Shown in pieces: positions 5,140 through 60,154 of a stretch of 64,000 bases of DNA; position 1 is the first letter of the stretch; each line of letters starts with the position of its first letter. Where the stretch lies: the NCBI RefSeq assembly GCF_036507355.1, contig NZ_AP027877.1. One strand, given 5' to 3'. Below the pieces are notes generated by a model, which had not been told where the DNA came from, ran no database searches, and saw only the letters and a list, made by a program, of their open reading frames with translations. The translations under genes were made by a program, and so were the position numbers. The stretch is from Escherichia coli (GTDB lineage Bacteria > Pseudomonadota > Gammaproteobacteria > Enterobacterales > Enterobacteriaceae).

Positions 5140-5167
5140 ATTAAGTCTCTGAGTTCTTACGCCGAAC

Positions 5168-6079
5168 TCATACTGGTAACGCTAGTTGCTCTTTTTTAAA
5201 CGCCTCAATGGTCGATTTATATTTCTCGCAAATCTTTTCTTTGGTAATATCACTATCTGCGGCCAGATTCGCACTTACTATCGCATCCACTTGTTCGGCT
5301 AATTCGACTTGTTGGCAACCTGCATTAACCAGAAAATTATAAATAAGAGAGTAATCTTCATCCTCCAAAACAACAGAGGAACCATTACGAAAACGTTCAT
5401 CCCCTCCATAGATTTTAAGCGCAAAGCCCAAAGATTCTATGACTATGGCAAAATTATCATCAATTATTTTTTCGTAAATATACCATCCATCGCATTCTTT
5501 AATTCCACCTCCTGGTATTTGGAGTTCAAATTTACCCCGTTTTAATTTGCTTACTATATCCTCCAATAAGGCATAACCTAAAGACACGTCACCAATCGCC
5601 TGGTGAATATAACCTTTAATCCTTTTCGGTATGTCAGACTGTTTTTTCTGCAGAATATCCCAGGCATACAATCGTCTGTTTTGTTCTAACGGAAATTCAC
5701 GGTTTTTGAAATCCATGAATGAGTTATACTCATTTATTGTTATGGGGATTTCTTCGTATTCAAATCCACTGCCTCGCAATGTCATTGTATATTCGGCACC
5801 GTTATCTTTAAGGCTGAAACTGATAAGAAACTTATCCATGGCTTTAACAGTTTCATTTTTTGATGAAAGCACTTGATAACTACTTTTATCAATCTGAGTT
5901 GCGCAACGAAAGAACTCCCGCAAAGTTAACAGGCTATCATAATTTGAAATCCAATCTTTTTTATTAAATGCATGCTGGATATTGTTAAAAAAATTGTTTG
6001 AATGTGTTTTTGTATACGAAGACTTTACAAATAACTCCACCGCACCAATAAAATTATTGTGTCTGATCCTGGGTAACAT
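5168..6079 (-). CDS. ytfI: Uncharacterised protein YtfI (low-GC gene)
   Basis: ORF track 303 aa; AT-rich coding and upstream region; no motif recognised. Confidence 0.8.
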   Translation of the reverse strand: MLPRIRHNNFIGAVELFVKSSYTKTHSNNFFNNIQHAFNKKDWISNYDSLLTLREFFRCATQIDKSSYQVLSSKNETVKAMDKFLISFSLKDNGAEYTMTLRGSGFEYEEIPITINEYNSFMDFKNREFPLEQNRRLYAWDILQKKQSDIPKRIKGYIHQAIGDVSLGYALLEDIVSKLKRGKFELQIPGGGIKECDGWYIYEKIIDDNFAIVIESLGFALKIYGGDERFRNGSSVVLEDEDYSLIYNFLVNAGCQQVELAEQVDAIVSANLAADSDITKEKICEKYKSTIEAFKKEQLALPV

Positions 6080-7031: not shown

Positions 7032-7222
7032 TTCTCCACCTCGTCTCTGTGAGCGGTGTTAACTTATTGTTTTACTTATACCCTATCATTAATGAATGCG
7101 CCAACTGTGATAGTGTCATCATTTTCAAAGCGTAAAATTGTGGCATTCTTCACTGTTCTATAAGTAAGACGTTTATTCTCCCTTTTCTTTCGTATTCCCG
7201 ATGATAAAAGGATGTCCCTGAT

Positions 7223-7231
7223 GATTAAGTT
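7223..7231. repeat. IS1 target-site duplication, left copy (GATTAAGTT)
   Basis: 9-mer immediately left of IS1 left inverted repeat, identical to 8000-8008. Confidence 0.9.
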
Positions 7232-7286
7232 GGTGATGCTGCCAACTTACTGATTTAGTGTATGATGGTGTTTTTGAGGTGCTCCA

Positions 7287-7562
7287 GTGGCTTCTGTTTC
7301 TATCAGCTGTCCCTCCTGTTCAGCTACTGACGGGGTGGTGCGTAACGGCAAAAGCACCGCCGGACATCAGCGCTATCTCTGCTCTCACTGCCGTAAAACA
7401 TGGCAACTGCAGTTCACTTACACCGCTTCTCAACCCGGTACGCACCAGAAAATCATTGATATGGCCATGAATGGCGTTGGATGCCGGGCAACAGCCCGCA
7501 TTATGGGCATTGGCCTCAACACGATTTTACGTCACTTAAAAAACTCAGGCCGCAGTCGGTAA
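7287..7562 (+). CDS. insA: IS1 InsA
   Basis: ORF track 91 aa, [40 protein letters not shown]... Confidence 0.95.
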
Positions 7563-7984
7563 CCTCGCGCATACAGCCGGGCAGTGACGTCATCGTCTGC
7601 GCGGAAATGGACGAACAGTGGGGCTATGTCGGGGCTAAATCGCGCCAGCGCTGGCTGTTTTACGCGTATGACAGGCTCCGGAAGACGGTTGTTGCGCACG
7701 TATTCGGTGAACGCACGATGGCGACGCTGGGGCGTCTTATGAGCCTGCTGTCACCCTTTGACGTGGTGATATGGATGACGGATGGCTGGCCGCTGTATGA
7801 ATCCCGCCTGAAGGGAAAGCTGCACGTAATCAGCAAGCGATATACGCAGCGAATTGAGCGGCATAACCTGAATCTGAGGCAGCACCTGGCACGGCTGGGA
7901 CGGAAGTCGCTGTCGTTCTCAAAATCGGTGGAGCTGCATGACAAAGTCATCGGGCATTATCTGAACATAAAACACTATCAATAA
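7481..7984 (+). CDS. insB: IS1 InsB reading frame (expressed as InsAB' by -1 frameshift)
   Basis: ORF track 167 aa overlapping insA 3' end in the -1 frame. Confidence 0.9.
7538..7544 (+). other. IS1 programmed -1 ribosomal frameshift motif A AAA AAC
   Basis: ttaaaaaac lies in the insA frame (L-K-N) within the insA/insB overlap. Confidence 0.8.
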
Positions 7985-7999
7985 GTTGGAGTCATTACC

Positions 8000-8008
8000 G
8001 ATTAAGTT
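8000..8008. repeat. IS1 target-site duplication, right copy (GATTAAGTT)
   Basis: Identical 9-mer immediately right of IS1 right inverted repeat. Confidence 0.9.
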
Positions 8009-9954
8009 TAGCGCAACGCTCCTGGCCACGCTGATTGCCGCCAGTGTGAATGCAGCGACGGTCGATCTGCGTATCATGGAAACCACTGATCTGCATAGCA
8101 ACATGATGGATTTCGATTATTACAAAGACACCGCCACGGAAAAATTCGGACTGGTACGTACGGCAAGCCTGATTAACGATGCCCGCAATGAAGTGAAAAA
8201 CAGCGTACTGGTCGATAACGGCGATTTGATTCAGGGGAGTCCGCTGGCCGATTACATGTCGGAGAAAGGATTAAAAGCAGGTGATGTTCATCCGGTTTAT
8301 AAGGCGCTGAATACGCTGGATTATACGGTCGGTACACTCGGCAATCATGAATTTAACTACGGTCTGGATTACCTGAAAAATGCGCTGGCGGGAGCGAAAT
8401 TCCCTTATGTAAATGCCAACGTCATTGACGCCAGAACCAAACAGCCAATGTTTACACCGTATTTAATTAAAGATACCGAAGTGGTCGATAAAGACGGAAA
8501 AAAACAGACGCTGAAGATTGGCTATATTGGCGTCGTGCCGCCGCAAATCATGGGCTGGGATAAAGCTAATTTATCCGGAAAAGTGACGGTGAATGATATT
8601 ACCGAAACCGTGCGCAAATACGTGCCTGAAATGCGCGAGAAAGGTGCCGATGTCGTTGTCGTTCTGGCGCATTCCGGGCTGTCTGCCGATCCGTATAAAG
8701 TAATGGCGGAAAACTCAGTTTATTACCTCAGTGAAATTCCGGGCGTTAACGCCATTATGTTTGGCCATGCTCACGCCGTTTTCCCGGGTAAAGATTTTGC
8801 TGATATCGAAGGGGCTGATATCACCAAAGGCACGCTGAATGGTGTTCCGGCGGTAATGCCGGGCATGTGGGGCGATCATCTTGGTGTGGTCGACTTACAA
8901 CTCAGTAATGACAGCGGTAAATGGCAGGTGACGCAAGCGAAAGCGGAAGCACGACCGATTTACGACATCGCTAATAAAAAATCCCTCGCGGCGGAAGACA
9001 GCAAGCTGGTAGAAACACTCAAAGCCGATCACGATGCCACACGCCAGTTCGTCAGCAAGCCAATCGGTAAATCTGCCGACAATATGTATAGCTATCTGGC
9101 GCTGGTGCAGGACGATCCGACCGTGCAGGTGGTGAACAACGCGCAAAAAGCGTATGTCGAGCATTACATTCAGGGCGATCCGGATCTGGCAAAACTGCCG
9201 GTGCTTTCAGCTGCCGCACCGTTTAAAGTTGGTGGTCGCAAAAATGACCCGGCAAGCTATGTAGAGGTGGAAAAAGGTCAGCTGACTTTCCGTAATGCCG
9301 CCGATCTTTATCTCTATCCCAATACGCTGATTGTGGTGAAAGCCAGCGGTAAAGAGGTGAAAGAGTGGCTGGAGTGCTCCGCCGGACAGTTTAACCAGAT
9401 TGATCCCAACAGCACGAAACCACAGTCACTCATCAACTGGGACGGTTTCCGCACCTATAACTTTGATGTTATTGATGGTGTGAATTATCAGATTGATGTT
9501 ACCCAGCCCGCCCGTTATGACGGCGAGTGCCAGATGATTAATGCCAATGCGGAAAGGATTAAGAACCTGACCTTTAATGGCAAGCCGATTGATCCGAACG
9601 CTATGTTCCTCGTTGCCACCAATAACTATCGCGCTTACGGCGGCAAATTTGCCGGTACGGGCGACAGCCATATCGCTTTTGCTTCACCGGATGAGAACCG
9701 CTCGGTGCTGGCAGCGTGGATTGCTGATGAGTCGAAACGTGCGGGGGAAATTCACCCGGCGGCAGATAACAACTGGCGTTTAGCACCGATAGCTGGCGAT
9801 AAGAAACTGGATATCCGTTTCGAAACCTCTCCGTCAGATAAAGCCGCAGCGTTTATTAAAGAGAAAGGGCAATATCCGATGAATAAAGTCGCGACCGATG
9901 ATATCGGGTTTGCGATTTATCAGGTGGATTTGAGTAAGTAAAACACTTCTTTTT

Positions 9955-20167: not shown

Positions 20168-20847
20168 TTACTTCTGCCCGTAATAAGCGTTGGGACCGTG
20201 CTTACGCATGAAGTGTTTATTCATCAGGTAGCTGTCGATGTGATTGAGTTGTGGGTTAATGCCGCGGGCAATCCACGCCATTTTCGCCACTTCTTCCATC
20301 ACCACCGCGTTATGCACCGCATCGTGAGCATCTTTCCCCCAGGCGAACGGCCCGTGCTGATACACCACAATTCCCGGCGTATGCAGCGGCTCGGCGTTGC
20401 CCAGCGTTTCGATAATCACTTTGCCGGTGTTCAGTTCATACTCGCCCTGCACCTCTTCTTCGCTTAACCCGCGCGTACACGGAATGTCGCCAAAGAAGTA
20501 GTCGGCGTGCGTGGTGCCTAACGCCGGGATCGCCAGCCCCGCCTGCGCCCATGCGGTAGCATGAGTTGAGTGGGTATGGACAATGCCGCCAAGCGACGGG
20601 TAACGACGGTAGAGTTCAAGATGCGTCGCGGTGTCGGAAGACGGACGATATTCCCCTTCCACCACCTTACCGCTCATATCGACCACCACCATATCGTCTG
20701 CTTTCATGGGGCGACGCCGCTGGGCTTGATCACCACCAGCCCGCGTTCGCGGTCGATAGCGCTGACGTTGCCCCAAGTAAAGGTCACCAGCCCATAGCGC
20801 GGCAGATCCATGTTGGCTTCAAACACCTGCTGTTTTAGCTTTTGCAT
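20168..20847 (-). pseudogene. ulaF: L-ribulose-5-phosphate 4-epimerase (class II aldolase family), apparently frameshifted
   Basis: N-terminal 47 codons ([46 protein letters not shown]) end at TGA 20704-20706; the rest ([18 protein letters not shown]...YYGQK) continues in another frame to 20168. Confidence 0.75.
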
Positions 20848-21701
20848 TATGCCGCCTCCACCATGCCCGCTTTCGCCATGCGCGCTTTCACCCAATCACG
20901 CGCTTTCGCCACTTCTGCCGCCGGGTCTTCCGCCGTTTCGCTCCACATCTCAATCAGGTATGGCCCGCAATAGCCACTCTGTTTGAGCGTTTCGAAACAA
21001 CGTTCGAAATCCACTACACCTTCGCCAAACGGCACGTTTTTGAAGACGCCCGGTTTGGTGTCTTTCACATGCACCGCGACGATATGCCCGATTCCGGCCT
21101 GCAACTCCATCTGCACGTCGTTATCCCACGCCGACAGGTTGCCGATATCCGGGTAGAGCTGGAACCACGGATTGTTGAGATAGTGCGCGTAGCCCAGCGC
21201 CTTGCTGATGGAGTTCATCAACGGATAATCCATGATCTCCATCGCCAGCGTCACCTGCGCGCGGCTTGCCATCTCAACGCTCTCTTTCAGGCCGTCACGG
21301 AAACGACGACGCGTTTCGTTATTGGCTTCCTGATAGTAAACGTCATAGCCCGCCAGCTGGATCACGCGAATACCGACATCCTGGGCGAACTGGATAGCTT
21401 TACGCATAATCTCCAGCCCCTGCGCCCGCACCGCGTCATCTTCACTGCCCAGCGGGAAACGACGATGAGCAGAAAGGCACATGGACGGCACGCGCACGCC
21501 GGTTTCAACAATCGCATTGACCAGCGCCAGACGCTGCTCGCGGCTCCAGTCGAGGCGCGACAGGCGCTCGTCCGTTTCATCTACCGACATCTCGACAAAA
21601 TCGAAGCCCAACGTTTTTGCCAGTTGCAGGCGTTCCAGCCAGCACTCCCCGGCGGGGAGCGCTTTTTCATAGATGCCAAGCGGGATTTGTTTGGACAACA
21701 T
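20847..21701 (-). CDS. ulaE: L-ribulose-5-phosphate 3-epimerase
   Basis: ORF track 284 aa; stop overlaps ulaF start (TAATG). Confidence 0.95.
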
Positions 21702-21710
21702 ATCCGCTCC

Positions 21711-22361
21711 TTAGCCCCACAGTTCAGCGATGGAACGTTTGAACTGACGTGCGGCTTCCACCGGAGAAGCGGCATCACGGATACTACGGCCCGCGATAAA
21801 GACGTGAATCGGAATGCCTTTGAACAGCGGCAGATCTTCCAGCGCCAGGCCTCCGGTGACGGTGACTTTGAAGCCCATATCGGAAAGACGTTTGATCGCG
21901 GTGATGTCCGCTTCGCCCCACGCCACGCCTGCGGCCTGCGCGTCACGGCTGCGGTGATAAACCACCTGCTGAATGCCTGCATCGCGCCACTGTTGCGCCT
22001 GTTCCCAGGTCCAGTAACCGGTCAGTTCGATCTGCACGTCGCCGTTAAACTCTTTTGCCACGTCCAGCGCGCCTTTGGCGGTGTTGATATCCGCACAGCA
22101 AATTACCGTCACCCAGTCAGCGTTGGCTTCGAAGCACATACGCGAAAGGATTTTGCCTGCATCGGCAATTTTGGCGTCTGCCAGTACGATTTTGTGCGGG
22201 TAGAGCGCTTTCAGGTCACGAACCGCACGCACGCCTTCGCCCACGCACAGAATGGTGCCCACTTCGATAATGTCGACTTCTTCGGCAATCAGGCGAGTGG
22301 TTTCGTAGGCGCTATCCATAGTCTGGTTGTCCAGCGCGACTTGCAACATCGGTAATGACAT
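21711..22361 (-). CDS. ulaD: 3-keto-L-gulonate-6-phosphate decarboxylase
   Basis: ORF track 21711..22514; internal ATG at 22359-22361 gives [24 protein letters not shown]..., 216 aa. Confidence 0.95.
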
Positions 22362-22374
22362 GTTCAATTCCTTC

Positions 22375-22839
22375 TTAAGCTGCCGCGTTGGTGCGGTCAA
22401 TGAGATCCAGTACTTCCTGCTCGGTACGGCAGGCGCGTAAACGGTCAAAATTCTCTTCATCTTCAAACAGGTTGACGATCTGCATGATACCCACTTCCTG
22501 GTGAGTATTGGCATCGACCGCCGCCATGGTGATGAGGATATCCACCGGATCGTTGTCGTCGTGGTTAAATTCCAGCGGCTTTTTCAGCGTTACCAGAGAG
22601 AAACCGGTTTTCTTAACACCCTCTTCCGGCCGCCCGTGCGGCATCGCCAGCCCCGGAGCGATAACGAAATAAGGGCCAAACTGTTCCACGCCATCCAGAA
22701 TCGCCTGGTAATAGCGCGGCTCGACAACGTCCGCCGCCACCAGCAGATCGACGCCGATTTTCACCGCGTCCTGCCAGGTTTCAGCTTCAGCCTGCAGGCG
22801 GATGGATTTATTTACAGCCAGCGAATCACGTAATTTCAT
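22375..22839 (-). CDS. ulaC: Ascorbate-specific PTS EIIA component
   Basis: ORF track 154 aa. Confidence 0.95.
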
Positions 22840-22848
22840 GGCGCGTCC

Positions 22849-23154
22849 TTACTTCACGTCCTGCGGGAAATGCTCTTTGATCACTTCCAGCAGTTTCGGG
22901 CCAAAGTCGGCAGGAGAGAGCATGTTGCGCACGCCAACCACGTATTTGTTGCCGGTCACGGTGATTTCGCCCGCAATGTGCGTAGAAGCGATGATGATAT
23001 CCGCGCCACTCAACTCGCTTTTGTACTCGCCAACCGCGCAGCTGTTTACCGTATGGTCAATGTTTGATTGGGTTAAAAACTGGTCCACTTTCATCTTCAT
23101 GATCATGGAACTGCCTTGTCCGTTGCCACACACAGCCAGAATACGTACGGTCAT
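22849..23154 (-). CDS. ulaB: Ascorbate-specific PTS EIIB component
   Basis: ORF track 22849..23160; start [16 protein letters not shown]..., 101 aa. Confidence 0.95.
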
Positions 23155-24921: not shown

Positions 24922-25986
24922 ATGAGTAAAGTGAAAAGTATCACCCGTGAATCCTGGATCCTGAGCACTTTCCCGGAGTGGGGTAGCTGGTTGAATGAAG
25001 AAATTGAACAAGAACAGGTCGCTCCTGGCACATTTGCGATGTGGTGGCTTGGCTGCACCGGGATCTGGTTGAAATCGGAAGGTGGCACCAACGTTTGCGT
25101 TGATTTCTGGTGCGGCACTGGCAAACAAAGTCACGGTAACCCGTTAATGAAACAGGGTCACCAGATGCAGCGCATGGCTGGCGTGAAAAAACTGCAGCCA
25201 AACCTGCGTACCACCCCGTTTGTTCTTGATCCGTTTGCGATTCGCCAGATCGACGCGGTACTGGCGACTCACGATCACAACGATCATATCGACGTTAACG
25301 TCGCTGCTGCCGTGATGCAGAACTGTGCTGATGACGTACCGTTTATCGGACCGAAAACCTGTGTGGATTTGTGGATTGGCTGGGGCGTACCGAAAGAGCG
25401 TTGCATCGTGGTCAAACCGGGCGATGTAGTAAAAGTGAAAGACATTGAAATTCATGCGCTTGATGCTTTCGACCGTACTGCACTGATCACCCTGCCTGCC
25501 GATCAAAAAGCGGCTGGCGTACTGCCAGATGGCATGGACGATCGCGCGGTGAACTACCTGTTCAAAACGCCTGGCGGCTCCCTGTATCACAGCGGCGACT
25601 CCCACTACTCTAACTATTATGCGAAGCACGGTAACGAACATCAGATCGACGTGGCGTTAGGATCGTACGGCGAAAACCCGCGCGGTATCACCGACAAAAT
25701 GACCAGCGCCGATATGCTGCGTATGGGTGAAGCGCTGAATGCGAAAGTGGTTATCCCGTTCCACCACGATATCTGGTCAAACTTCCAGGCCGATCCGCAA
25801 GAGATCCGCGTGCTGTGGGAGATGAAAAAAGATCGCCTGAAGTATGGCTTCAAGCCGTTTATCTGGCAGGTGGGCGGCAAATTTACCTGGCCGCTGGATA
25901 AAGACAACTTCGAGTACCACTATCCGCGCGGTTTCGATGATTGCTTCACTATTGAACCGGATCTGCCGTTCAAGTCATTCCTGTAA
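24922..25986 (+). CDS. ulaG: L-ascorbate-6-phosphate lactonase (metallo-beta-lactamase fold)
   Basis: ORF track 24916..25986; ATG at 24922 gives [20 protein letters not shown]..., 354 aa. Confidence 0.95.
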
Positions 25987-26093: not shown

Positions 26094-26849
26094 ATGACTG
26101 AAGCACAAAGACATCAAATCCTCCTGGAAATGCTCGCACAATTGGGCTTTGTGACCGTTGAGAAAGTCGTTGAGCGTCTGGGAATTTCGCCTGCCACTGC
26201 GCGACGCGATATCAATAAACTTGACGAAAGCGGCAAACTGAAAAAAGTGCGCAATGGCGCAGAAGCTATTACCCAACAGCGCCCGCGCTGGACGCCGATG
26301 AATCTGCATCAGGCGCAGAATCACGATGAAAAAGTACGTATCGCTAAAGCGGCCTCGCAGCTGGTTAATCCGGGCGAAAGCGTAGTCATCAACTGCGGCT
26401 CCACCGCGTTTCTGCTTGGGCGGGAAATGTGTGGCAAGCCAGTGCAAATCATCACTAATTATCTACCGCTGGCAAATTACCTGATCGATCAAGAACATGA
26501 CAGCGTGATCATTATGGGCGGACAGTACAACAAAAGTCAGTCCATCACTTTAAGCCCGCAGGGCAGCGAAAACAGTCTCTATGCCGGGCACTGGATGTTT
26601 ACCAGCGGAAAAGGGCTGACCGCAGAAGGGTTGTATAAAACCGATATGCTGACAGCAATGGCAGAGCAGAAGATGCTGAGCGTGGTAGGGAAACTGGTGG
26701 TACTGGTTGATAGCAGTAAGATTGGCGAACGCGCGGGAATGCTTTTTAGCCGTGCCGATCAAATCGATATGCTTATCACCGGCAAAAATGCTAACCCGGA
26801 AATCCTGCAACAACTGGAAGCGCAAGGGGTCAGCATTCTGCGTGTTTAA
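26094..26849 (+). CDS. ulaR: DeoR-family repressor of the ula regulon
   Basis: ORF track 251 aa; N-terminal HTH and DeoR C-terminal domain. Confidence 0.95.
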
Positions 26850-31521: not shown

Positions 31522-32160
31522 TTAGCCTCCCCAATGCCCACGGGCGCTGGAAGAACGACCATAGCCGCCGCGCGAAACGGTTGACGCTTTTTTGGTGGTA
31601 AAGCCGCCTGAAGAGTAAGACTCTTTTTTGCCAGAACCGGAGCGCCAGGAGTAATCACCGGAAGTGTTGCGCCAGACGGGGCGGGAAGCAAATGAGGATC
31701 CGCCGCTGTTATAGACGAACGGCTCATCGCGATCTTTACGAATAACCCGGCTTAACAAAAATCCAGAAACGACCGGGATCCAACTCTGTTCAACATTGTC
31801 GTAGTAGCAATTTTCGTACTTAGACTGACAGTTCTGCTGAGTCATATTCTTCGGAACATCGGCATAAAATGCTGCTTTGGCGTTGTTCCAGCCACGCGCG
31901 CAAATGTCGGCATTATTACCGTCATCAATACAATCCTGCACAGTCGAGTAAAACGTTCCGTCGCCGTCGTTATCGACATCGCTACTTTCACTCCATCCTT
32001 TGACTATTAAAAAAGCGGCACCGCCCATTAGCGCCAACGTTAAGTATTTTTGTGCGTAACGATTGCGACGCGGTTCAAAAGGATTATTCGGTCTGCCAAT
32101 GCGACTGATCGCTCCGTGACCAATTTTACTGTTATTTCTTGATTTGCGTTTTCTGGCCAT
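31522..32160 (-). CDS. yjfM: DUF1190 protein
   Basis: ORF track 212 aa; basic N-terminus, one TM segment, Gly/Ser-rich C-terminus. Confidence 0.85.
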   Translation of the reverse strand: MARKRKSRNNSKIGHGAISRIGRPNNPFEPRRNRYAQKYLTLALMGGAAFLIVKGWSESSDVDNDGDGTFYSTVQDCIDDGNNADICARGWNNAKAAFYADVPKNMTQQNCQSKYENCYYDNVEQSWIPVVSGFLLSRVIRKDRDEPFVYNSGGSSFASRPVWRNTSGDYSWRSGSGKKESYSSGGFTTKKASTVSRGGYGRSSSARGHWGG

Positions 32161-33244
32161 GATCGTCCATTACCATGTCATACATGGCTGCGTTAAAAAT
32201 ACCACCAGCCAGTGCGGCGGTTCCCATAAACATTCCTGCTGCGGTATTGTGATTAATAATTTTTTCGCTTAATGCGGGCATATAAAGTCTGACACCAGCA
32301 AAAACGAGTAACTGAATCACTAGTGCAATCCCGCCCCAGGCGAAATAGTCTGGAATACTCACCGCATTGATTGCCGCACTGGATAAGGGGATCACGTAAC
32401 CCAACAATGTACCGCTGAATGCCAGTGACGCCGCGGTATTATTGTTTTTGATTAATTGCCATTCGTTGTGCGGTGTAATTTTGGAGTAGATAAACAGAAA
32501 AATAATCACCATAGCCACGCCAATAAAAAAATAGGCACTAAAGGCAAGAAGTGAATCCAGTATATGCATTGTAAACGTCCTTGTAATTAACCAATAATAT
32601 GAAGTGATGTCAGCGGGATATCGACACCCAGCGCGCGAAAATAACCACTCTGGCTCGCCGAGATCGTTAAAAGATTCCTCACCATTTAACAGCAAATATT
32701 CGTAAGTATCTTCGGTCACTTGCCGCTGGTAACCCATGGTAAAATTATGGACTTCCCATTTGGCATGGTTTTGATTTTCTACTTTTTCCAGCATGTAGAC
32801 GGGTTCGATATTTCCCGGTTCTTCGCTGTTAAAAAATCGCTGCCAGCGTTTTTCCTGCCAGTTTAAGGTCATTGCCCCCATCGCTTTGGCGTTGATCGCC
32901 TCGCGCCAGTGACTCTCTTTACTGATACCGTAGCTCTCTTCATAGACAAAGAGCTTGATATCATCAATGTCATCAATATCTTCGCCGCCGGTGGTATTGA
33001 TTTGCAGAAACTCATCGCCTGAAGTGTAGTAGCGGAAAATCTGGCTACCGCCGCCCAGATCGATGTGACTGACAGCGGCTACCGTAAATTCCTCACCCGG
33101 CAGCGCAATCAGCAATTCATCTTCCAGCAAACGAAACGCTAACGTGTCGAGCGTAAAGCCACTATTAAGATGAAGGCCCAGCGGACCGCGAGCGATTGCA
33201 GGCTTATTATCCTTGCCAAACAGACGCTGGAAAAAACCAGACAT
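32132..33244 (-). CDS. yjfK-yjfL: Single 370-aa ORF joining a YjfK-like (DUF2491) N-terminal part to a YjfL-like (DUF350) C-terminal part
   Basis: ORF track 32132..33244 continuous; internal ATG at 32567-32569 (MHILDSLLAF...) preceded by aagga SD marks the yjfL start; the upstream 225 codons are YjfK-like. Confidence 0.7.
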   Translation of the reverse strand: MSGFFQRLFGKDNKPAIARGPLGLHLNSGFTLDTLAFRLLEDELLIALPGEEFTVAAVSHIDLGGGSQIFRYYTSGDEFLQINTTGGEDIDDIDDIKLFVYEESYGISKESHWREAINAKAMGAMTLNWQEKRWQRFFNSEEPGNIEPVYMLEKVENQNHAKWEVHNFTMGYQRQVTEDTYEYLLLNGEESFNDLGEPEWLFSRAGCRYPADITSYYWLITRTFTMHILDSLLAFSAYFFIGVAMVIIFLFIYSKITPHNEWQLIKNNNTAASLAFSGTLLGYVIPLSSAAINAVSIPDYFAWGGIALVIQLLVFAGVRLYMPALSEKIINHNTAAGMFMGTAALAGGIFNAAMYDMVMDDHGQKTQIKK

Positions 33245-58100: not shown

Positions 58101-58501
58101 TTACCGAGCAGTTTATTAACTGGTCGCTCTCTGACTCGGTTACGCGCGTGGTGTTGACGATTCCGGCCCCTGCCGATGCCAACAGTGAAGAAGTGACGGA
58201 AATCCTGCTCACCGCAGCGCGTCGCTGCTCGCTGGTGATCGACAACCCGGCACCGGAAGTCTTCCTGGTGGATCTGCAACAGGGGATTCAGATTTTCGAG
58301 CTGCGTATTTACGCCGCTGAGATGGGTCACCGTATGCCGCTACGCCATGAGATCCACCAGCTGATTCTGGCTGGCTTCCATGCTCACGGTATCGATATGC
58401 CATTCCCGCCCTTCCAGATGCGTCTGGAAAGCCTCAACGGTAAACAAACGGGGAGAACGCTGACGTCTGCGGGCAAAGGTCGTCAGGCGGGAAGTTTGTA
58501 A
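55178..58501 (+). CDS. mscM: Miniconductance mechanosensitive channel MscM (MscS family)
   Basis: ORF track 1107 aa; signal peptide, long coiled-coil periplasmic domain, multiple TM segments. Confidence 0.93.
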   Translation: MRLIITFLMAWCLSWGAYAATAPDSKQITQELEQAKAAKPAQPEVIEALQSALNALEERKGSLERIKQYQEVIDNYPKLSATLRAQLNNMRDEPRSVSPGMSTDALNQEILQVSSQLLDKSRQAQQEQERAREIADSLNQLPQQQTDARRQLNEIERRLGTLTGNTPLNQAQNFALQSDSARLKALVDELELAQLSANNRQELARLRSELAEKESQQLDAYLQALRNQLNSQRQLEAERALESTELLAENSADLPKDIVAQFKINRELSAALNQQAQRMDLVASQQRQAASQTLQVRQALNTLREQSQWLGSSNLLGEALRAQVARLPEMPKPQQLDTEMAQLRVQRLRYEDLLNKQPLLRQIHQADGQPLTAEQNRILEAQLRTQRELLNSLLQGGDTLLLELTKLKVSNGQLEDALKEVNEATHRYLFWTSDVRPMTIAWPLEIAQDLRRLISLDTFSQLGKASVMMLTSKETILPLFGALILVGCSIYSRRYFTRFLERSAAKVGKVTQDHFWLTLRTLFWSILVASPLPVLWMTLGYGLREAWPYPLAVAIGDGVTATVPLLWVVMICATFARPNGLFIAHFGWPRERVSRGMRYYLMSIGLIVPLIMALMMFDNLDDREFSGSLGRLCFILICGALAVVTLSLKKAGIPLYLNKEGSGDNITNHMLWNMMIGAPLVAILASAVGYLATAQALLARLETSVAIWFLLLVVYHVIRRWMLIQRRRLAFDRAKHRRAEMLAQRARGEEEAHHHSSPEGAIEVDESEVDLDAISAQSLRLVRSILMLIALLSVIVLWSEIHSAFGFLENISLWDVTSTVQGVESLEPITLGAVLIAILVFIITTQLVRNLPALLELAILQHLDLTPGTGYAITTITKYLLMLIGGLVGFSMIGIEWSKLQWLVAALGVGLGFGLQEIFANFISGLIILFEKPIRIGDTVTIRDLTGSVTKINTRATTISDWDRKEIIVPNKAFITEQFINWSLSDSVTRVVLTIPAPADANSEEVTEILLTAARRCSLVIDNPAPEVFLVDLQQGIQIFELRIYAAEMGHRMPLRHEIHQLILAGFHAHGIDMPFPPFQMRLESLNGKQTGRTLTSAGKGRQAGSL

Positions 58502-58608
58502 TGCATGAAGCTGCCAAATGATGTCAACGTGGCTCATTTAGCAGCTTAACATCATCTTCAGTTATCACCAGCCCCGGAGAATATCATCCATACGCATTAC
58601 TTCCTGAC

Positions 58609-58636
58609 AACTCATCGCCGGAGAGACGATGAGTTG
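58609..58636. terminator. Hairpin between convergent mscM and yjeM
   Basis: actcatcg-ccggagaga-cgatgagt inverted repeat. Confidence 0.45.
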
Positions 58637-58651
58637 CAGGATTTCATAGGA

Positions 58652-60154
58652 TCAGTCGAGAGCCAGTTCAGGTTTGTTCGCCATGCGACTGCAATAGTTC
58701 TGGTAAATCGCCATCGCTAACAGCGAGAAGAAGACAGGGCCGCCAATCATCCACAATGTGCTGTCCCAGTCTCCGGCTTCAACCACAGGCTGAATAATGG
58801 TGAAGACGTTCGCAAATGTCACCACCAGAACGACAACCACCGTCGCAATCATTGCCGACATACGCGTTTTGAAAATCACAAATGGTCTGTCGAGATCCTG
58901 ACGTGCTTTAAAGAATGGGAAAGCCAGCGCGAGGAACAGGTAAGGAAGCGTCATAGACACGTTCGCCATCAGCGTCAGCTTGTTAAAGAACGCCGATGCG
59001 GTACCGCCACCAAACGAAACCAGCAGGATGAAAACAGTAACCAACCCGCACTGCATCCACATGGCGATAGACGGCATCCCCATCGCATTCAGGCGCGTCA
59101 TCGGTTCCGGCCACAACGCTTTCGGCGTCCCCTGGATGATGGCTTTCAGCGGTGAATAGCAAAGCGTAAAGAACGCACCGGTATAGGCGAGGAACATCGA
59201 AAGTCCGGTAATACGCGCAAACCATACGCCCAGCGACAATGACGCTTCAGGTGACAAATGCAGTGCGTTACCCAGCGTCACCCCGAGGCTCTTCATCAGC
59301 ACATAGGTAATATTGCCAAGGTTAACGGAACCATTACTTAATACCTGCTGCCAGTTTGTGCTGACGCCCCATAAAAATATTGCCAGCGAATAACCGATTG
59401 AAATAACAATAGCGGCAAAAACAATACCTTTGGCAAAGTTCTTTTCTGGATTTTCCGTTTTATCGACCAGACCACCAACCGCTTCAATTCCGCCATAGGC
59501 AAAAATAGCAAATACCACAAACGATAGCATTGCCAGACCGGACTGATAACCCGGGTTCGGTGATGCAAGGAAATTAATATCCTGCGCGAAATGCCCACCA
59601 TTTAATAACAAAATAGTAATGCTTACTAACAGCAATACTAAATTCAGACACATTACTGCAATACCGCCCACCGCAGTAATGCGGGCAATTTTATTAATCC
59701 CCTTAGAAGCAACGACGGTGACCAGAATCATCCATGCCACTGCCAGCAGACCAACCACCTGCGTAGGCTCCAGTCCGGCAATACGCCAGTGCTGGGTCAT
59801 GTCGCTACCATAGAGGAATGTTGAGAACGGTACCCAAACTTTCGCGGAGGTACTCACCATCCAGATGATATAAGAGGAAAACCACATAAACGTACCAATG
59901 AAGGCAAAACGTGGTCCGACACTATTATTCATCCAGGAATAGATACCACCTTCTTCTTTGCGATAAGCAGCTCCCATTTCAGCCATCATTAAGGCGAATG
60001 GAATAAAGAATAACAATGCAGAAAATATATAAAAGGGAATCGCACTATAACCCATTAAGTAATAAGCCGATGGGCTATTGGCAAATCCAAATACGGAAGT
60101 AAAGATCATCAATATGAGTCCTATCAGACTCATCTTTTTTATCGTGTGAGGCAT
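58652..60154 (-). CDS. yjeM: APC-superfamily amino acid transporter
   Basis: ORF track 58652..60196 (GTG start); start taken at ATG 60152-60154 (MPHTIKKMSLIGLIL...), 500 aa. Confidence 0.88.
   Translation of the reverse strand: MPHTIKKMSLIGLILMIFTSVFGFANSPSAYYLMGYSAIPFYIFSALLFFIPFALMMAEMGAAYRKEEGGIYSWMNNSVGPRFAFIGTFMWFSSYIIWMVSTSAKVWVPFSTFLYGSDMTQHWRIAGLEPTQVVGLLAVAWMILVTVVASKGINKIARITAVGGIAVMCLNLVLLLVSITILLLNGGHFAQDINFLASPNPGYQSGLAMLSFVVFAIFAYGGIEAVGGLVDKTENPEKNFAKGIVFAAIVISIGYSLAIFLWGVSTNWQQVLSNGSVNLGNITYVLMKSLGVTLGNALHLSPEASLSLGVWFARITGLSMFLAYTGAFFTLCYSPLKAIIQGTPKALWPEPMTRLNAMGMPSIAMWMQCGLVTVFILLVSFGGGTASAFFNKLTLMANVSMTLPYLFLALAFPFFKARQDLDRPFVIFKTRMSAMIATVVVVLVVTFANVFTIIQPVVEAGDWDSTLWMIGGPVFFSLLAMAIYQNYCSRMANKPELALD

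Follow-up and report, generated by a model that had tools for sequence, protein, structure and literature searches.

Escherichia coli has three L-ribulose-5-phosphate 4-epimerases, UlaF and its paralogues SgbE and AraD, all of which catalyse the same reaction; in araD mutants the build-up of L-ribulose 5-phosphate is toxic. The primary paper in which functions were assigned to UlaD, UlaE and UlaF is said to be that of Yew and Gerlt in 2002. Within the pathway, UlaF finishes the conversion of L-ascorbate 6-phosphate to D-xylulose 5-phosphate (PMC3219644). The intact E. coli enzyme (SgaE; WP_001601324.1, or allele P0031) is encoded as one frame of 228 codons by the last gene of ulaABCDEF, the start of which overlaps the stop of ulaE. 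AraD, a paralogue with the same class II aldolase fold (solved structures 1JDI and 1K0W), binds zinc through three histidine residues, employs Asp120 and Tyr229 in catalysis and forms its active site from two subunits (PMC5434028). UlaF and AraD align over their whole length with 62% identity (E = 2e-91).

The window described here, a stretch of 64,000 nucleotides from E. coli contig NZ_AP027877.1, carries ulaF at the same locus and in the same position within the operon. In place of the one 228-codon frame of the intact gene, however, a 7-nt deletion leaves an ORF of 47 codons and another of 179 codons. Taken together, the two fragments are identical to allele P0031 apart from the missing Y47-E48-T49. 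With respect to AraD, the metal-binding and catalytic residues of that enzyme align with residues which are still encoded in the window. AraD is nevertheless a single chain, whereas in the window the equivalents of its metal and catalytic residues lie on a different ORF from the equivalents of N28, K42, S44 and G45, which we take to be its phosphate-binding pocket.

In its genetic arrangement the locus resembles the ordinary lineage-specific pseudogenes that frameshifts have produced among metabolic genes in E. coli and Shigella, with which it shares a small out-of-frame indel, an immediate stop, confinement to a single clonal lineage and intact flanking genes, such that an incidental ATGA overlap at the junction is the only distinction. 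It also has some likeness to prfB and dnaX, in that two overlapping frames specify one protein, with a stop after a slippery-looking run (C-CCA-TGA in the window). In those genes, however, the frameshift is conserved across orthologues, whereas the arrangement in the window has an ancestral state of a single frame and is absent from all of the 5,426 complete E. coli genomes searched. Programmed frameshifting was rejected on these grounds.

The ulaF locus and its deletion junction

The window is a segment of the E. coli chromosome which runs from tamA to frdB and is collinear with K-12, some 61 mapped K-12 genes all being in the same order. The ula regulon occupies 20.1-26.9 kb, ulaABCDEF being encoded by the minus strand (Table 1), and from the mapping of K-12 genes ulaF is its sole disrupted member. 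As ulaF closes ulaABCDEF and the adjoining yjfY is a convergent gene, other genes are not expected to suffer polar effects. On the minus strand the ulaE stop codon (TAA, 20849-20847) shares bases with the ATG of ulaF, and the premature TGA of the 5' fragment is overlapped, as ATGA (20707-20704), by the ATG of the 3' fragment. The 5' frame begins MQKLK and the 3' frame ends in NAYYGQK. The latter fragment corresponds to native residues 50-228 and stands in a different frame from the former; in other words, two ORFs of 47 and 179 codons are present where a single frame of 228 codons would be found in the intact gene. The original prediction had proposed such a split of ulaF by a frameshift, and all of the coordinates that it gave match the minus strand and the list of ORFs.

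In an alignment to the ulaF genes of three E. coli strains (100416, Nissle 1917 and K-12), the only indel is a gap of precisely 7 nt. GTCGCC-TACGAAA-CCATGAAAGCA in the references corresponds to GTCGCC-CCATGAAAGCA in the window, with the junction between 20710 and 20709. The missing TACGAAA comprises the codons of Tyr47 and Glu48 together with the first base of Thr49, and the residues lost are accordingly Y47-E48-T49. These are the residues, YET, which the original prediction had assigned to the intact enzyme, and the alignment to reference ulaF for which it had asked returns a single 7-nt gap against intact references that retain them. Its estimate of the loss, about 7 nt reading tatgaaa, was right in length and wrong in its bases, as all three references have TACGAAA, a difference of one wobble base.

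The indel is not divisible by three and the TGA stands two codons past the junction, as befits a pseudogene. That both fragments derive from ulaF is evident from their alignment to the three intact genes and from PF00596, which is recorded on both of the called fragments. The frame break itself is read directly off the alignment and does not depend on statistics. As regards its origin, slipped-strand mispairing was considered and rejected, since the flanking CC...CC repeat predicts a loss of 9 nt and GAAA...GAAA a loss of 8 nt, not 7. No microhomology or flanking direct repeat that fits a 7-nt loss was found at the ulaF junction.

Table 1. Coordinates of the ulaF fragments, the remaining ula genes and the IS1 genes within the window
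Feature	Coordinates	Strand	Remarks
ulaF 5' fragment	20704..20847	-	ATG 20847-20845, 46 native codons + Pro, then premature TGA 20706-20704
Deletion junction	20709..20710	-	7 nt (TACGAAA) missing; reads GTCGCC directly followed by CCATGA
ulaF 3' fragment	20168..20707	-	ATG 20707-20705 (native Met50), 179 codons, TAA 20170-20168
ulaE	20847-21701	-	intact; full-length and gap-free vs K-12, no internal stops
ulaD	21711-22361	-	intact; full-length and gap-free vs K-12, no internal stops
ulaC	22375-22839	-	intact; full-length and gap-free vs K-12, no internal stops
ulaB	22849-23154	-	intact; full-length and gap-free vs K-12, no internal stops
ulaA	23170-24567	-	intact; full-length and gap-free vs K-12, no internal stops
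ulaG	24922-25986	+	divergent, intact (mapping of K-12 genes)
ulaR (repressor)	26094-26849	+	divergent, intact (mapping of K-12 genes)
insA of cpdB IS1	7287-7562	+	
insB of cpdB IS1	7481-7984	+	

Occurrence of the allele and other lesions in the window

A 70-nt query across the junction found it in none of the 5,426 complete RefSeq E. coli genomes, the best match being 70/77, which is the 7-base gap; ulaF itself was matched in 5,424 of these genomes. JGI metagenome contigs, scanned with 32 nt of the junction, gave no matches either, from which the allele would appear to be rare. The junction was checked at the sequence level in two independent assemblies as well as in the window. One is an independent draft genome, GCA_905398585.1, in which it lies on contig CAJPYR010000034.1 (L003/L010) with 1 mismatch to the window in 6,540 nt (L003), and the other is a gut-type metagenome contig of 523 nt, ERZ926208 (L011, from ERR2380891). 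The second of these differs from the window at 10 of its 523 positions, clustered in the flanks, and its Thr24 codon has remained ACC, against ACT in the window; it could represent the deletion allele in a second, slightly different or recombinant background, or it could be a multi-strain chimeric contig.

The 47-aa product of the 5' fragment is diagnostic in this regard, since it requires this deletion or one equivalent to it. Seven public contigs carry it, one of them a 4.64-Mb E. coli chromosome where two CDSs are annotated: BED24090.1, a 'hypothetical protein VEE46_38580' which is exactly the 47-aa product, and BED24089.1, a 'UlaF' of 174 aa annotated from Met55. Exact-protein searches with the C-terminal fragments of 179 aa and 174 aa brought up many short metagenome and Logan contigs (L004-L009, L012-L021) whose ends lie at or close to Met50 or Met55; inspection of their sequences showed that they stop short of the junction, and they were left out of the count. 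A Logan assembly of SRR6506258, from an unrelated sample, has another ulaF frameshift (L006, ~640-680): TACGAAA is intact there, and within a few codons on its upstream side 1 nt is missing from the CCC in AAGCCCAGCGG, giving ORFs of 49 aa and 179 aa. This could be an independent, real inactivation of ulaF or a homopolymer error.

For three more contigs of the lineage the divergence from the window is 3 bases per 10-21 kb, and the few SNPs which separate its members from the window indicate that they are separate isolates. The closest complete RefSeq E. coli genomes are those of the K-12 family, at 98.7% for the best 25-kb match, with ulaC (94.6%) and yjfM (95.6%) being window genes of notable divergence from K-12; the lineage thereby appears to be poorly represented among finished genomes. 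The RefSeq complete set holds no near-identical genome with an intact ulaF by which the deletion could be dated. With Tyr-Glu-Thr put back, the protein of the window has 228 aa and matches allele P0031 ('MULTISPECIES: UlaF [Enterobacteriaceae]') at every residue; that intact allele is recorded on at least 1,000 contigs. Since the repaired protein is such a common intact allele, the inactivation of ulaF is recent.

Other genes of the window are altered as well. The first 11 bases of cpdB, which end within codon 4, are followed by a complete 768-bp IS1 (7232-7999, plus strand; region 7221-8008). Its terminal inverted repeats are 23 nt long, and the 9-bp target sequence GATTAAGTT is duplicated on either side of it (7223-7231 and 8000-8008). 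The start of cpdB thus reads ATG ATT AAG TT, then IS1, then GATTAAGTT TAGC..., such that the native start codon and ribosome binding site at 7221 are severed from the body of the gene (8000-9941). The only in-frame start which remains is a TTG within the IS1 end (7986), and cpdB is probably inactivated or altered in its expression. In yjfK (region 32132-33244, minus strand) a 2-nt deletion at ~32631, in the context CGCGCGCG-TT, throws the gene out of frame near residue 204 of 219, and the shifted frame runs on into yjfL to give a fused ORF of 370 aa. The neighbouring yjfL, also on the minus strand, carries one extra nucleotide close to its 3' end (~32185), which extends its ORF over the start of yjfM. 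Neither of these indels is found in the 5,426 complete E. coli genomes. The exact 370-aa fusion occurs on six contigs (in GCA_905398585.1, SRR31122001, SRR17480487, one contig longer than 1 Mb, and others) and, being common to six assemblies, the two indels are lineage markers, not errors of a single assembly.

In ytfI (5141-6079, minus strand) codon 304 of 312 is TGA (5168-5170) where K-12 has TTA, and the protein is shorter by 9 residues. The genes yjeN and yjeO are absent, mscM and yjeM being only ~150 bp apart (58501-58652) where in K-12 both genes sit between them. Five affected genes out of about 62 (ulaF, yjfK, yjfL, ytfI and cpdB) is a somewhat high number, and gene decay may be ongoing in the lineage.

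Consequences for the enzyme and competing readings

From alignment to 1JDI, the 47-aa piece contains N27 and K41-P-S-G44, which correspond to AraD N28 and to K42, S44 and G45, while the 179-aa piece contains H93, H95, H167, D118 and Y225, which correspond to the zinc ligands and catalytic residues of AraD. All of the metal, catalytic and phosphate-binding residues are therefore encoded, but they are divided between two fragments and do not occur on one polypeptide. The break falls directly 3' of the KPSGV motif, as judged by alignment to the AraD structures 1JDI and 1K0W, and the 179-aa piece is without the first helix and strands of the class II aldolase fold. A predicted structure of intact UlaF (AlphaFold, from a 6-sequence alignment) was too poor to place residues 47-49, with a mean pLDDT of 43, and the AraD structure alignment was used in its stead. 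Reading of the window sequence finds no Shine-Dalgarno sequence before the internal ATG at 20707-20705. Given the position of the break, directly after KPSGV, and an internal ATG which lacks a Shine-Dalgarno sequence, the most likely consequence is that UlaF activity has been lost. The deletion takes out Tyr47-Glu48-Thr49, shifts the frame and brings about an immediate TGA; anaerobic ascorbate catabolism would then stall at L-ribulose 5-phosphate unless SgbE or AraD were to supply the 4-epimerase step.

We favour, at a probability of about 0.9, the reading that ulaF carries a genuine 7-bp deletion and is a recent, ordinary loss-of-function pseudogene, the loss of function being presumed from the sequence. 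Were the strain instead to have an intact 228-codon ulaF, from which 7 bases were dropped during assembly or consensus calling, the absence of the deletion from all 5,426 complete RefSeq genomes and from the JGI metagenome contigs would be readily understood. The two further private small indels, in yjfK and yjfL, could when taken alone also suggest an error-prone assembly, but they recur in six assemblies from different read sets, at 3 SNPs per 10-21 kb from the window, and about 55 other genes of the window are gap-free relative to K-12. Moreover, a loss of 7 nt in non-repetitive sequence is atypical of homopolymer error. What also weighs against an artefact, which we consider extremely improbable, is that the identical ulaF junction occurs in an independent draft genome and a metagenome contig and that the 47-aa product occurs on seven contigs. 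The original prediction had offered a pseudogene and a sequencing or assembly error as alternatives, and had named the restoration of a single 228-codon frame, or a reference protein without YET, as what would overturn it. The shared junction in GCA_905398585.1 and the metagenome contig, the seven contigs with the 47-aa product and the few SNPs which separate the isolates all come down on the side of a pseudogene; no such frame is restored by the independent data, and YET is retained in the intact references. On this agreement between independent assemblies, the deletion appears to be a genuine allele of a rare, small and nearly clonal lineage.

A genuine deletion might still leave UlaF split yet partly functional, either through reinitiation at the ATGA and reassembly of the 47-aa and 179-aa pieces, or through a -1 slip of peptidyl-tRNA-Pro on C-CCA to give a protein of 226 aa in which YET is replaced by P. 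The ATGA at 20707-20704 does have a run of four C directly before it, although its ATG is without a Shine-Dalgarno sequence; and, while only three residues are lost and each of the AraD-aligned catalytic, metal and phosphate-binding residues is still encoded in one or other fragment, the KPSGV-adjacent break falls in the core of the fold. Neither fragment shows further decay, which recency explains equally well and would appear to account for, and the arrangement, seen in 0 of 5,426 genomes, gives no sign of selective maintenance. Partial function of this kind is accordingly judged to be very unlikely, and there is scarcely any expectation that the lineage still makes active enzyme, whether as a two-piece UlaF or as a slippage-made 226-aa protein. 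If it did, this would be a case of natural fragment complementation or frameshift rescue in an epimerase of the class II aldolase fold. A different matter, and one compatible with the pseudogene explanation, is whether UlaF is inactive and yet the phenotype silent, with SgbE (of the yiaK-S operon), AraD or both filling the step such that the lineage still uses ascorbate. We hold this to be possible, albeit at appreciably less than even odds. It is in keeping with the general knowledge that E. coli has three such epimerases of identical reaction, and the intact state of ulaA-E, ulaG and ulaR fits continued use of the pathway, though it fits recency equally. There is also a parallel in Yersinia intermedia, where a ula regulon without ulaF is accompanied by UlaF-like genes elsewhere and complementation has been proposed (PMC3219644). 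On the other hand, it would require sgbE or araD, which both lie outside the window, to be present, intact and expressed on anaerobic ascorbate. A literature search for ulaF pseudogenes or frameshifts in E. coli, or for compensation among ulaF, sgbE and araD, found nothing relevant. The ascorbate phenotype would thus hinge on these two paralogues. Given the toxicity of accumulated L-ribulose 5-phosphate to araD mutants, a ulaF null in which ulaA-E and ulaG are intact may even be sensitive to ascorbate unless SgbE or AraD takes over.

Significance for the lineage

The ulaF of the window is a lineage-specific frameshift pseudogene of a standard kind in a well-known gene, with an allele that is already in public records; a literature search found no paper which discusses it. 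As such it has little significance beyond annotation at the level of the strain. In this regard, the ulaF of this lineage should carry a pseudogene annotation, where one public record at present divides it into two CDSs, one for a 'hypothetical protein' and one for a truncated UlaF. In combination with the yjfK and yjfL indels and the IS1 in cpdB, the 7-bp junction could also serve as a specific mark of this rare lineage for tracking. For the organism itself, the lesion predicts that anaerobic use of L-ascorbate would be defective, or that ascorbate sensitivity would arise through build-up of L-ribulose 5-phosphate, unless SgbE or AraD compensates.
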